From: Candidatus Lloydbacteria bacterium RIFCSPHIGHO2_02_FULL_50_18
GTDB taxonomy: Bacteria; Patescibacteriota; Minisyncoccia; Phycocordibacterales; UBA6899
Direction: 5' to 3'
Assembly: GCA_001821395.1 (NCBI GenBank)
Contig: MHLM01000008.1
Location: 1 to 31,115 of the forward strand
DNA length: 31,115 nucleotides
Each line of letters begins with the position of its first letter. Positions within the stretch are counted from its first letter, which is position 1. Shown piece after piece: positions 9,707 through 23,668 of the stretch. The translations under genes and the position numbers were made by a program. The notes under the pieces were generated by a model. That model was not told where the DNA came from, searched no databases, and was given only the letters and a program-made list of their open reading frames with translations.

Positions 9707-9845
9707 ATATCTCTATGATAGCAGAGAATATATTTGTATTCTATTCGACTCTTTGCTGCTTTCGAGCGAAGCGATGTTTTTATGCTGCGCAATAAAGAAC
9801 TCGCCCATGGAGGCGAGTTGCACGAGTAAAAACACAATTCTTGCT

Positions 9846-10196
9846 TCAATTCCATTCCTCTGTAGACACATCAAAATGAGTTATTGCGGTCTTTTCAGTA
9901 AGCCCACTTTCTACAAAAAATTTTTTGTAGTACTCAAGTCCAAGCGTCATTGCCGAAAATTCCGTTTCAGCATCCACTCGATATATCACCTTGGTAGCCG
10001 AACCGGTAACGGTAATGAGTGATCCATGAAATCTAAAAAATCGAGGGAATACGATGGAATCTGGTTTGACCGAACAATGGCTAAGCGGCTCGATGAAATC
10101 GCTAAACTTATACTGCTCAAGCAATTCTGGTTCACAACCGAGACGACTCTGAATAACAAGAGTGACCTTCCACTCACGGAATTGGGGAGAAGACAT
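9846..10196 (-). CDS. Hypothetical protein (116 aa), immediately upstream of the 2H-phosphoesterase gene
   Basis: Strong SD (AAGGAG 6 nt before the ATG) on the minus strand. Composition is protein-like. The overlapping ORFs in other frames lack a comparable RBS. Confidence 0.5.
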   Translation of the reverse strand: MSSPQFREWKVTLVIQSRLGCEPELLEQYKFSDFIEPLSHCSVKPDSIVFPRFFRFHGSLITVTGSATKVIYRVDAETEFSAMTLGLEYYKKFFVESGLTEKTAITHFDVSTEEWN

Positions 10197-10942: not shown

Positions 10943-10977
10943 AACCAGCCTCTAAAACGGCTGGTTCATTTTTATTT
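10943..10977 (+). terminator. Rho-independent terminator followed by the ATTTGTGAC boundary motif
   Basis: gaaccagcc-tctaaaac-ggctggttc hairpin followed by atttttatttgtgaccc. Confidence 0.6.
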
Positions 10978-11078
10978 GTGACCCTAACGGGAAGAATTTG
11001 GAATCAGGTGTATGGGGAGATGATTTTGGTTGAGAGGTGGGATGTTACACTTACTTGTTGAACCCAGAATTGGGGAGG

Positions 11079-11109
11079 TTGACAAAACAGTTCACTTTTT
11101 ATTAAATAA
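11079..11109 (+). promoter_or_regulatory. Sigma70-like promoter, copy 2 of the GGTTGACAAAACAG module
   Basis: gggGAGGTTGACAaaacagttcactttttatTAAATAat. The -10 assignment is ambiguous (TATTAA or TAAATA). Confidence 0.4.
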
Positions 11110-11140
11110 TCTCAGATTGCGATTCATGCGGGAGATAGGA

Positions 11141-11296
11141 ATGAAGACGTACATTATCATCGGTGCAGTGTTCGGCCTTGTTGGAGTGACCGCACGCTTG
11201 CTAGGTGTCCATTTGAATTCTTGGATGTGGGGGGTGGGGGTAGGGTTTGCGGCAGCCCTGATTGTTGGTTACATCAAAAACAGAAAAAAGGGATAG
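11141..11296 (+). CDS. 51-aa hydrophobic two-helix peptide with basic C-terminus (small membrane protein; type I toxin-like architecture)
   Basis: Internal ATG of the 88-aa track ORF with RBS gGGAGataggaATG. Sequence is MKTYIIIGAVFGLVGVTARLLGVHLNSWMWGVGVGFAAALIVGYIKNRKKG. The upstream part of the track ORF is promoter sequence. Confidence 0.5.
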   Translation: MKTYIIIGAVFGLVGVTARLLGVHLNSWMWGVGVGFAAALIVGYIKNRKKG

Positions 11297-12346
11297 GTGC
11301 ACAATCGTCAGTGATGGCGATTTTTTATTTGTGACTCTACAGAGAATTTCGCTCCCTACTGGAGCAGTGCGCCTTTGCGATTTACTCTGAATAAGAATTC
11401 TTCGTAAATAACACAAAGCCCTTCGATTCTCTGGCGAAAAGCAAGCAGTTGCTTTTCTTAAGGTCACAGACAAAAATGGCCACGCTTTCGCATGACTCAT
11501 TTTTGTTGCTGTGACCTTACAGAGAATCGGGGTCAACTCACATCAATATTTTATTCGTGCGGACACTCCAAAATATTGTGTGGTTCCTCCCCGGACTCGG
11601 CAACGCCCATCGACAGGCTCAGGGCGGCTTCGCGCCTCCGTCTTTCGATCATCTGCAAGGGCCCGGCAAATACTAAAAGCCCGATGCATTGCATCGGACT
11701 TAAAGTATTTGTGACCTTACAGAGAATCGAACTCTGATTTAAGCCTTGAGAAGGCTTCGTCCTAACCGTTAGACGATAAGGCCAATACGTAGTTGTGATA
11801 ATAACATTGAGTTCGATTCTATGGAACTCTGATTTCCGCCCTACTGGCGCAGTACACCTTTTCGATTTTTAAGAAAAAACCTGAAAAGGTCTTGTGAAGT
11901 GGGTCCCATCCCACTTCTCACCTTTCGAAGGCTTCGTCTCCCTAAAGGGACTTCCATTTTCTAAAACGGAATACCGTTAAGAAAATTTGATCGCTAACCG
12001 TTAGACGATAAGGCCAATACGTAGTTGTGATAATAACATTGAGTTCGATTCTATGGAACTCTGATTTCCTCCCTACAAACGGCAGCGAGGAGAAAAGGAA
12101 GCTCGCTTACTTTTTATCCGAGTGAACCGTTCGTATGTTTCATACAGGAGCTGTTCCCGATTGATTATCCGAGACCGTTCTCCCTGCCTGCGCAGGCAGG
12201 CGATAAGGCCAATGGACAGACAGCACTTTTAATCGAACTTCAAAAGAATAGCGAATTTGAGCCTATTTGTCTACCTCAAGGTTGACAATATTGAATATTC
12301 GTGTAGAATGGGAAATGAAGCAAGTCTTCGTATAAGGAGTTAGTTA
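11297..12346. repeat. ~1 kb ORF-free mosaic repeat region (modular direct and inverted repeats, many hairpins); candidate structured-RNA array or decayed cassette/MITE cluster
   Basis: There are three copies of ATTTGTGAC(C/T)(C/T)TACAGAGAAT at 11328, 11507 and 11709. A 76-bp perfect direct repeat occurs at 11762-11837 and 11994-12069. An inverted repeat pairs 11458-11478 with 11498-11519. There is a perfect 18-bp palindrome cctgcctgcgcaggcagg at about 12183-12200. A third partial copy gcgataaggccaat sits at 12199. Hairpin CTCC-CTACT-GGAG co-varies with CGCC-CTACT-GGCG. Confidence 0.7.
12279..12306 (+). promoter_or_regulatory. Strong sigma70-like promoter (TTGACA-16-TAGAAT)
   Basis: aagGTTGACAatattgaatattcgtgTAGAATggg, 40 nt upstream of the ATG at 12347. 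Confidence 0.55.
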
Positions 12347-21146: not shown

Positions 21147-21611
21147 CTATTTGATCTCGAGGATCTCACAATGATCCTCTCCACGTGGTGTCGTGCACTT
21201 GAATTCATCCCCCTTTCTTTTTCCCATCAGATTCTCGCCGAGCGGTGATTTGTTCGAGATCTTTCCCGCCTGCACGTCGTTCTCCTCGGAGCCGACGATC
21301 GTGTAGGTCTTTGTCTCCTTACCGCGTTTCAGTGTGACAATTGAGCCAATGCCGACGGCATCGGTCTTGTGTTTATTTCCGACAATAACGGCATTCTTGA
21401 GAATCTCTTCGAGAACGGCAATACGTTCCTCGACTCCCGCCTGCGCTTCGCGTGCCGAATGATATTCAGCATTTTCCGAAAGGTCACCAAGCGCCTTTGC
21501 TGCCTCAAGTGCTTCGGCTATTTCCTTGCGCTTTATGTGGGTTAAAAAATCAAGTTCTTCTTTTAGCTCGTCATGCTTCTCGCGGCTGAGATATTCTTTT
21601 TGTGTATCCAT
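21147..21611 (-). CDS. greA: Transcription elongation factor GreA
   Basis: Internal ATG at 21611 gives MDTQKEYLSREKHDELKEELDFL (coiled-coil N-terminal domain) and an FKBP-like C-terminus. The upstream extension is Arg-rich and unlikely to be coding. Confidence 0.85.
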   Translation of the reverse strand: MDTQKEYLSREKHDELKEELDFLTHIKRKEIAEALEAAKALGDLSENAEYHSAREAQAGVEERIAVLEEILKNAVIVGNKHKTDAVGIGSIVTLKRGKETKTYTIVGSEENDVQAGKISNKSPLGENLMGKRKGDEFKCTTPRGEDHCEILEIK

Positions 21612-21674
21612 AATGTGGCAATATAGCACTTTTTGACGGCCGGAGCAACCACGATTTGAGCGAGCCCGGCGTGA

Positions 21675-21874
21675 ACGAGCGAGAGTTTTTTTTCGCACAC
21701 ATTCCGCACCTAGTACCCCATTAACTTAATTTTGCACCATAAAATCCCCCAATTTCGGCTACGACTAGGGAAAAATTTTTCGAATTAGCTTTGGCTAGTC
21801 CTCAAAATTTTTTCCGTCGTCTCGCTCGCAATTTTTGAATTTTCTCGGTACAAAATTAAATTAACGGGGTACTA
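21675..21874. repeat. Interleaved inverted repeats in the greA-mrdA intergenic region (candidate MITE or structured leader/terminator)
   Basis: 25-bp inverted repeat ctagtaccccattaacttaattttg (21709-21733) paired with caaaattaaattaacggggtactag (21850-21874). It is interleaved with cgagcgagag (21675-84) paired with gtctcgctcgc (21808-18). A central gactag..ctagtc pair sits at 21762 and 21794. Confidence 0.55.
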
Positions 21875-23668
21875 GCGGAGATCGGACGTACTTGTTGCTC
21901 CGGAAGGAGATATAGCCGCCTGTGTACTGCTTCCGATTACGGGTGAAATGACGGCCGGGACATCAAACACGACCGGTGTATCACGACCGAGATATTCATG
22001 AGCATTGCCGGCGAGCCACTTGAAGAGGAGCGCTGCGGTAAAACTTGCGTTCGTGGTATTCCCCTTCACCCCACGATCCATCACTACCGCGAACGCGTAT
22101 TTGGGGTGGTCGTACGGAAAGAATCCAATGACCCACGAATTGACGCGCGCCTTTGTCACACCAAGCTCGGCAGTTCCCGTCTTCGCGGCGATCTTCACAT
22201 AAGGGAAGTTCAATAATTTAGCCGTTCCTTCGATGGCACCCTTCCTCATCCCCTCTTGAATGACCGTGAAATATGCTTCAGGAATATCGAGTTGCGAGGT
22301 TGTCGCGTTGGGAATTTCTTTTGCAAGATGCGGTGTCACGACGCGACCCCTTGATGCGATGACGGAAGCCTCTTTGAGTGCCTGCAGCAATGTCGCCTGC
22401 ATACCATACTGCCCAATGCCGGTGAAATAGGTATCACCGATACGCCATGTCGGATCGTTCGGAAAATTCTTTTCTTTCCATTCGGGGTTTGGTATCGTTC
22501 CTTCTGCCTCACCCTCGAGATCGATGCCTGTCGTGGAACCATAACCGAACATGCGCGCGTACTTTTCGACATTTCGTATTCCGAGGCCTTTTTGATCCTT
22601 ATATCCACCTGCAACTTCATAAAAATACACGTTAGAGGATTGCGCGATTGCTGTACGCATATCCAGCCAACCGTGAGCTTTCCAGTCGTTGAAACGCGTT
22701 TCTTTATCGGGGAAATACGGATTCGGAATAGCGATGTACCCGACACTCTGGATCCGCGTATACGGAGTGAGTATCCCTTCGTTCAATGCGCCCGTAGCGA
22801 ACATCGGCTTCACGATGGAACCCGGTGCATAGAGCCCCGAGATAGCGCGGTTCAGGAATGGTGTACGGATATCGGAATTATATTTTTGTATCGCCGCACG
22901 ATCGTCGCCGGCCGTCATGATATTCGGATCAAAATCGGGATATGAAACGAGTGCGATGAGTTCCCCATTGTCGATGTCCATGATCGCACCTGCCCCCCCG
23001 CGGTAGTCCTGATCATTCGCAATCTTCGCAACAATGCGGTAAAAATTTTCCTGAACCTTGCCGTCAATCGTTAAATGGAGATCAGTACCCGACTGGGGCG
23101 GATCGATGGTGTTCGAAGAAATGACGTTACCCAATGCATCGGTCTCAATGATGCGTAAGCCTTTCTTCCCCTTTAGTATCTCGTTGTAATACGACTCAAT
23201 ACCGATGGGTGCTTCGTAGTCCTTGCGATAATAGACTCCGCTCTTATCACGTGCGGGATAATGGAGAAATCCGAGAATATGACCGAATCCCGGATCGGTA
23301 ATGTAATTGCGGAGCGAAAAACCCAGCGCTTCGGGGGCGGGAATGTTCCATGCGAGCTCAAGTCCATTACGATCATAAATGATGCCGCGTTCGGGAAACA
23401 AAAGCTGATGTTCGAGGCTATTTTGCTCACTGGTCTTGGCATAAACCGCACCCCTACCGATCTGCAGTATGCCTGCACGACCGAGAAAAATCATGGTGAC
23501 GAATAAAAAGAATGCCCCAAGGAGAATGATGGTGGACTTCTTTATCGGCTCCTCGATCCTCCCCTCGAATTGATGCACGTCGAAATCCGGAATATTCTTG
23601 TCATCAAGAAATATTTCATCGGGTGCGATATCCGTATGGTCGTCGTATTTGTTCTTGCGTCTTTTCAT
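21872..23668 (-). CDS. mrdA: Penicillin-binding protein 2 (class B transpeptidase, elongasome)
   Basis: N-terminal TM. SxxK (GSIVKPMFA) and KTG (AAKTGTA) motifs. Immediately downstream of mreBCD. Confidence 0.85.
   Translation of the reverse strand: MKRRKNKYDDHTDIAPDEIFLDDKNIPDFDVHQFEGRIEEPIKKSTIILLGAFFLFVTMIFLGRAGILQIGRGAVYAKTSEQNSLEHQLLFPERGIIYDRNGLELAWNIPAPEALGFSLRNYITDPGFGHILGFLHYPARDKSGVYYRKDYEAPIGIESYYNEILKGKKGLRIIETDALGNVISSNTIDPPQSGTDLHLTIDGKVQENFYRIVAKIANDQDYRGGAGAIMDIDNGELIALVSYPDFDPNIMTAGDDRAAIQKYNSDIRTPFLNRAISGLYAPGSIVKPMFATGALNEGILTPYTRIQSVGYIAIPNPYFPDKETRFNDWKAHGWLDMRTAIAQSSNVYFYEVAGGYKDQKGLGIRNVEKYARMFGYGSTTGIDLEGEAEGTIPNPEWKEKNFPNDPTWRIGDTYFTGIGQYGMQATLLQALKEASVIASRGRVVTPHLAKEIPNATTSQLDIPEAYFTVIQEGMRKGAIEGTAKLLNFPYVKIAAKTGTAELGVTKARVNSWVIGFFPYDHPKYAFAVVMDRGVKGNTTNASFTAALLFKWLAGNAHEYLGRDTPVVFDVPAVISPVIGSSTQAAISPSGATSTSDLR

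Follow-up and report, generated by a model that had tools for sequence, protein, structure and literature searches.

Inverted repeats between mrdA and greA in a Candidatus Lloydbacteria genome are very probably the ends of an IS630-type miniature transposable element

Transposable elements of the miniature inverted-repeat type (MITEs) have been described in several bacterial groups, and for one of them, the 107-bp repeat unit of pneumococcus (RUP) of Streptococcus pneumoniae, mobilisation by IS630-Spn1 has been proposed (PMC2229807). Here we analyse a 31,115-nt stretch of DNA (contig MHLM01000008.1 of assembly GCA_001821395.1, positions 1 to 31,115 of the forward strand; hereafter the window) from Candidatus Lloydbacteria bacterium RIFCSPHIGHO2_02_FULL_50_18, in which a long inverted repeat lies between mrdA and greA. 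We conclude with high confidence that its arms are the two ends of an IS630/Tc1-mariner-type MITE inserted at the CTAG of the mrdA stop codon. The locus thus holds an ordinary mobile-DNA insertion and not a regulatory RNA, and the element, an IS630-family MITE in bacteria of the candidate phyla radiation (CPR), is of a known kind.

Nezha, a MITE of cyanobacteria, is reportedly associated with a TA duplication and linked to an IS630-like transposase. The present element is like it in being a bacterial MITE and unlike it in host phylum (Zhou et al. 2008, cited in PMC10969869). RUP, likened here by its description, is similar in kind, being short, non-coding and intergenic with IS630-family-like terminal repeats and insertion at TA (PMC2229807), but it occupies another host, its terminal repeats measure 9 bp against about 26-29 bp here, and it is present in about 108 copies per genome against one copy in the 31-kb window. 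The Correia/NEMIS elements of Neisseria are comparable in architecture, with a length of about 107-155 bp, 24-bp terminal repeats, TA termini and a target-site duplication, and their transcripts form long stem-loops (PMC2229807). They have no known parent insertion sequence (IS), whereas an IS630-family parent is identified here; the IHF site, promoter and RNase III functions are reported features of Correia. IS630 of Shigella sonnei and ISY100, both of the IS630/Tc1-mariner family, offer the comparison on the side of the parents. The parental elements described below are likewise about 1.18 kb long with terminal inverted repeats (TIRs), they encode an N-terminal helix-turn-helix (HTH) and a DDE_3 catalytic region matching NF033545, and the insertions are flanked by TA in CTAG, a target documented for IS630 (PMC2170065). 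Unlike these relatives, the window element has no transposase, the transposase of its parents is split into two overlapping open reading frames (ORFs), and the hosts are Patescibacteria (CPR) rather than Proteobacteria or Cyanobacteria.

A repeat search recovered the main inverted repeat with 29-nt arms at 21710-21738 and 21847-21875, 90% complementary and separated by 108 nt; the two matches of its 25-mer arm were reproduced in none of 100 dinucleotide shuffles. The original prediction had reported a 25-bp repeat with 23 of 25 positions complementary, a description that stands apart from coordinates one base off, and had rightly noted that the right arm overlaps the end of mrdA, whose TAG stop is the complement of 21872-21874. 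This repeat is just the outer portion of a near full-length palindrome. The MITE proper, GTACCCC...GGGGTAC, occupies 21713-21872 (160 bp); it is palindromic along its entire length and non-coding, the ORF list containing no frame of at least 40 aa wholly inside it, and its TIRs extend over ~26-29 bp. The greA-proximal TIR (GTACCCCATTAACTTAATTTTGCACC, + strand) lies at 21713-21738 and the mrdA-proximal one (GTACCCCGTTAATTTAATTTTGTACC as read on the - strand) at 21847-21872, the ends of the element in the window being CTAGTACCCCATTAACTTAATTTTG and CTAGTACCCCGTTAATTTAATTTTG. With both copies of the target tetranucleotide included, the insertion footprint CTAG...CTAG covers 166 bp (21710-21875). 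Folded as - strand RNA in a 291-nt context, 21706-21878 forms one long hairpin of -106.8 kcal/mol (z = -7.0), and the + strand fold of the same region has z = -4.2. The tip of the hairpin is a central imperfect palindrome (21763-21815) that holds a GACTAG/CTAGTC pair (21763-21773 and 21790-21800). This pair had also been noticed earlier, and its presence is confirmed; it is nested inside the main repeat and not interleaved with it.

The affiliation of these ends is given by elements that carry a transposase. The same termini flank ISs of ~1.18 kb in contigs L005 (about 721-1899) and L017 (2243-3425, 1183 bp) and occur on partial ISs in L010, L012 and L014, with further IS ends in L035. In L012, L005, L010, L014 and L017 the ends read CTAGTACCCCATTAA(T/A)TTAATTT(TG/CC), and the window TIR is identical to them at 22-24 of 25 positions. 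Both the L005 and the L017 IS contain a pair of overlapping ORFs, with HTH_32/HTH_29 in one and DDE_3 in the other, which jointly cover the NCBIfam model NF033545, "IS630 family transposase" (positions 2-119 and 124-299). L035, which belongs to a Kaiserbacteria metagenome-assembled genome (MAG) of the same Rifle aquifer study as the window, encodes a 76%-identical transposase within an element that has related ends and is flanked by CTAG. Homologues of the transposase exceed 6000 at E <= 1e-30, the few named ones being from Kaiserbacteria and Patescibacteria, and many lie on ~1.2-kb contigs, as expected of repeats. The suggestion that the arms resemble the terminal inverted repeats of a MITE was therefore correct, these repeats being common to autonomous IS630-family elements. 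A full-text literature search on MITEs in the candidate phyla radiation returned nothing relevant, and such elements seem little described in Patescibacteria.

Two further features of the parental elements are recorded here in their own right. The division of the transposase between an ORF for the HTH part and a second, overlapping one for the DDE part is found in every parent IS examined (L005 754-1888, L017 2259-3387, L035 2032-3160), and nearly all database homologues consist of ORF2 only, with about 219-222 aa; taken together, this pattern suggests a conserved programmed frameshift in this CPR clade rather than decay. The IS630-family copy in L010 (917-2510) is seemingly interrupted by a second IS with a 432-aa ORF (1212-2510), which would make it a nested insertion.

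The termini also recur without a transposase. The arm pattern GTACCCCNTTAANTTAATTTTG was scanned for in one genome per species and, separately, in metagenomes, and ends of the form CTAGTACCCC.TTAA.TTAATTT were found to delimit further short elements, located at unrelated loci. Among the genomes, the scan yielded one arm-bounded element of 55 bp in another Lloydbacteria MAG, scarcely more than two abutted terminal repeats, and three identical 108-bp copies on three contigs of the Saccharibacteria MAG CAYZNS01, at unrelated loci; the metagenome scan added 13 further loci with the arm. Two near-identical sister copies of 166 bp in a Hainich groundwater assembly (L011 and L016) share the length of the window copy and can be aligned to it from one terminus to the other. 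The L011 copy (9811-9976) lies between rpsB and tsf, exactly on the TAG stop of rpsB (9973-9975), and has CTAG on one side but CTAA on the opposite one, and the L016 copy (2139-2304) is situated 78 nt after gyrA, inserted into the loop of a hairpin that resembles a terminator, AAAACGAGCC-TAGTCA-GGCTCGTTTT. All copies have the boundaries CTAGTAC...GTACTAG, with interiors that vary among subfamilies, and overall at least four further lineages or assemblies contain the termini, transposase-bearing elements included. The search for further copies of the arm, proposed in the original prediction as a check on the MITE possibility, thus identifies it as multi-copy across genomes. Viral contigs gave no match to the arm, and so no sign of a phage origin.

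The 108-bp Saccharibacteria element shows an arrangement of its own: in L003 (5590-5900), and in the same way in L008 and L013, it abuts the 3' end of a tRNA gene, the tRNA 3' end ACTCCCACCCGCGGCACCA reappears ~100 nt downstream, and the interior of the element contains four short direct repeats with TCTGCG.

Orthologous loci delimit the insertion. Contig L027 is collinear with the window (mrdA DNA ~92% identical, GreA 99% identical, PBP2 also 598 aa), and its mrdA-greA spacer measures 98 nt against 260 nt in the window (21612-21871); the difference of 162 nt equals the 160-bp element plus a 2-bp TA duplication. The junction alignment shows a clean gap, with ...CGCTAG|TGCGGATTGTG... (CGCTAG|TGCGG) in L027 against ...CGCTAG[TACCCC...GGGGTACTAG]GTGCGGAATGTG... 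in the window, and the BLAST alignments between the two break at the CTAGs; the empty site has a single CTAG, and the filled site has one at either end. In the more distant relatives L028 (spacer of 81 nt) and L030/L031 (92 nt) the element is absent from the orthologous spacer as well. Given its absence from L027, L028 and L030/L031, the parsimonious reading is that it was inserted in the lineage of the window; the direction and timing of the event are inferred from this. The comparison of the region upstream of greA among relatives, another check proposed at the outset, therefore finds no conservation of the element at this locus, which favours a MITE. The other eight contigs shown with the exact GreA protein match the window at 100% identity wherever they cover the region and carry no comparative information.

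In the IS630 family, insertion takes place at TA, which is duplicated, and IS630 itself has a preference for TA within 5'-CTAG-3' (PMC2170065; Tenzen & Ohtsubo 1991, by its title as cited there). The window conforms to this rule: the TA duplication lies at 21711-21712 on the greA side and at 21873-21874 on the mrdA side, where it supplies the first two bases of the TAG that ends mrdA. It had been overlooked earlier, when no target-site duplication was seen, being hidden in the palindromic CTAG. The flanks of all 18 ends examined read (C/T)TAG or CTA(G/A), and the CTAG and CTAA ends of L011 favour a 2-bp TA over a 4-bp CTAG duplication. An IS5-type 4-bp CTAG duplication was considered first and dropped, since the parent transposase is of the IS630 family.

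CTAG itself is about five-fold depleted across the window, with 24 occurrences against 121 expected from base composition, and four of the 24 lie within or at the ends of the MITE. Such depletion implies scarce targets for this IS630 clade, among which TAG stop codons may form a notable share.

One public scaffold of the same locus, L023, has a spacer of 462 nt and was considered as a variant. In it (346-541) an N-gap and foreign sequence stand in place of the MITE hairpin tip, and the scaffold was set aside as an assembly artefact, one that the long palindrome probably caused; the palindrome thus also matters for assembly quality.

The course of events may be pictured from what is known of the family. 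Lacking a transposase of its own, the element would be mobilised in trans: an IS630-family DDE transposase supplied by a full-length relative with the same ends would bind both TIRs, excise the element and paste it into a TA, strongly preferring the context CTAG, with duplication of the TA. In this Candidatus Lloydbacteria lineage it would have landed in the CTAG that contains the TAG stop of mrdA. With G as its first and C as its last base, the element restores the palindromic CTAG at either side, which disguises the TA duplication; and as the TAG found after insertion consists of the duplicated TA and the element's terminal base, neither the stop codon nor the 598-aa protein is altered. The intergenic spacer would thereby have grown from about 98 to 260 nt, and transcripts of mrdA would gain, in their 3' untranslated region (UTR), a ~170-nt hairpin of great stability. 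The effect is most likely neutral or mildly modulatory, through stabilisation or processing of the 3' end.

All genes around the element lie on the - strand, in the order mreB, mreC, an 88-aa ORF, mrdA, greA and lysS. mrdA (21872-23668, stop at 21872-21874) encodes a PBP2-like transpeptidase of 598 aa with the Pfam domains Transpeptidase and PBP_dimer, and greA (21147-21611) a protein of 154 aa with GreA_GreB_N and GreA_GreB, an identical protein being named GreA of Candidatus Lloydbacteria. The element had been thought to span the whole intergenic region and to sit where the greA promoter should be; neither holds. The repeat extends over 21710-21875 of the 21612-21871 spacer, and the 98 nt on the greA side of the element belong to the ancestral spacer. 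Within them, 61 nt beyond the element, lies an intact sequence that, judged against the consensus, is likely the greA promoter (21648-21620, - strand): a -35 TTGCTC (21648-21643), a 17-nt spacer and an extended -10 TGcTATATT (21628-21620, with the -10 hexamer at 21625-21620). Its columns are invariant in the alignment with L027, L028 and L030. This promoter-like sequence ends 8 nt before the greA ATG and is followed by no Shine-Dalgarno sequence, which suggests that the greA mRNA is probably leaderless in Lloydbacteria. Since the predicted promoter is downstream of the whole element, the latter stands outside any greA leader made from it.

The position of the repeat invited a quite different explanation, a cis-regulatory RNA in the mrdA 3' UTR or the greA leader (attenuator, riboswitch or pseudoknot) whose interleaved helices would control read-through into greA. 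The - strand does fold far better than its shuffles (z = -7.0), all three arm mismatches become G.U on the gene-sense strand, and a perfect 9-bp pair in interleaved topology exists, joining CGAGCGAGA (21676-21684) in the flank with TCTCGCTCG (21820-21828) inside the MITE. This second pair, which the original prediction gave as 10 bp with its second arm at 21809-18, is however at chance level: at least one perfect 9-mer inverted pair arises in 17% of dinucleotide shuffles of the spacer, and when the 97-nt flank is shuffled, a 9-mer complementary to the element turns up in 8.6% of cases. Its flank arm belongs to the ancestral spacer, L027 having CCCTCGCTCG aligned to it without any MITE, while the other arm came with the insertion, so that the helix is best regarded as coincidental; it is absent from the minimum-free-energy folds of both strands, in which its arm inside the MITE forms part of the element's own hairpin. 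The a-A-a'-A' order that had been held incompatible with a simple hairpin stems solely from this pair, and the pseudoknot was discarded along with it. Nor does the G.U bias speak for selection at the RNA level, a candidate that was likewise rejected: the same G.U-versus-A.C asymmetry is found in all three copies, sense to the host genes in the window and antisense to them in L011 and L016, and is thus an inherited property of the family. The element is missing from the same spacer in L027, L028, L030 and L031, where greA and its predicted promoter are conserved, and the predicted promoter lies downstream of the entire structure, which accordingly is not in that leader. Rfam at gathering thresholds recognised only a tRNA elsewhere in the whole window, and at E <= 1 the region 21550-21950 matched only models of plant miRNA precursors, with 23-36 bits and so far short of the gathering scores, which are 195-211; generic long hairpins give such matches. 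The attenuator, riboswitch and pseudoknot hypotheses are thereby refuted to a large degree, and we consider a regulatory RNA very improbable. A simple local inverted duplication, or a chance palindrome devoid of mobility, would agree with the single copy in the window, but is refuted by the same termini at unrelated loci of at least four other lineages or assemblies, also on transposase-bearing elements, and by insertion boundaries that are exact at CTAG against the empty site; its probability is close to nil.

Several observations nevertheless weigh against an uncomplicated MITE insertion. The 31-kb window contains one copy only, from which neither multi-copy status nor a resident transposase follows for the genome itself. 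Because CTAG is palindromic, 2-bp (TA) and 4-bp (CTAG) duplications are not rigorously separable, the L011 ends being the sole evidence between them. The greA-side junction reads CTAG-G-TGCGG against CTAG-TGCGG in L027, and this 1-nt G indel calls for one more mutation, in a spacer that diverges fast and has several further differences. A further point is the maintenance of the hairpin: ten compensated pairs between the window copy and its sisters L011 and L016 preserve it over the full length, five of them in the central helix outside the terminal repeats, with 96% of cells paired overall, and none of 500 shuffles reaches the observed covariation, a comparison of what are effectively two independent sequences, which also supplied the structure. 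Simple transposon decay does not predict compensated pairs, so that a structural constraint on the DNA or RNA is possible, and the data are suggestive of palindromy being maintained in the 166-bp subfamily.

These compensated pairs lead to the possibility of a co-opted MITE, whose hairpin at the mrdA 3' end would stabilise the end of the transcript, be processed by RNase III or act as a terminator/insulator that separates the mreBCD-mrdA genes from greA, in the manner proposed for Correia/NEMIS. In its favour, the very stable hairpin has its start right at the stop codon, the two sides have stayed complementary throughout, inside and outside the TIRs, and the L011 sister sits likewise exactly on a TAG stop, that of rpsB. 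Precedents exist, RNase III processing having been proposed for Neisseria MITE hairpins (PMC2229807) and terminator or riboswitch-like roles of MITEs having been raised as a possibility (PMC10969869). An intrinsic (Rho-independent) terminator was nonetheless rejected as a candidate: on the - strand no U-tract follows the hairpin, the next sequence being GGTGCGGAAUG, and a terminator scan of 21613-21880 on both strands found no terminator-like site. The association with stop codons, seen in two of the three copies (mrdA and rpsB), is expected from the CTAG/TTAG target preference alone, the orientation relative to host transcription is inconsistent (one sense, two antisense), the relatives do without the element, and the covariation is thin for the reasons given above. 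Co-option thus appears unlikely as an addition to the MITE insertion, which remains the preferred explanation. A broader version of it, equally doubtful, concerns streamlined CPR genomes, in which canonical terminators are few: there the 166-bp subfamily would have been recruited as portable 3'-end hairpins (stabilisers, processing sites, insulators), and a single promiscuous IS630 clade would have carried such elements from one CPR class to another (Paceibacteria-like Lloydbacteria, Saccharibacteria).

Elsewhere in the window, the region 10960-12230 (- strand) contains one intact tRNA-Glu(CTC) at 11711-11783 surrounded by fragments of the same tRNA. An 83-nt direct repeat (11762-11844 and 11994-12076, 99% identical) carries the 5' part of the tRNA-Glu, a third 5' fragment is located near 12205-12218, and the 3' end GATTCTCTGTAAGGTCACA is present in four copies at about 10968, 11321, 11501 and 11701. 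These fragments look like scars of repeated integration and excision at a tRNA gene, or like decayed tRNA copies.

Taken together, the initial observation is partly confirmed and its interpretation partly supported: what appeared to be a pseudoknot between two housekeeping genes is a transposon footprint, not to be pursued as a riboswitch or attenuator. The difference between filled and empty sites offers a natural strain marker for Lloydbacteria populations. An element that targets CTAG can hit a TAG stop codon and regenerate it, which amounts to a silent stop-codon insertion. The analysis also documents a pair of MITE and parent IS with conserved ends, CTAG|TACCCC.TTAA.TTAATTT, common to several lineages of Patescibacteria.

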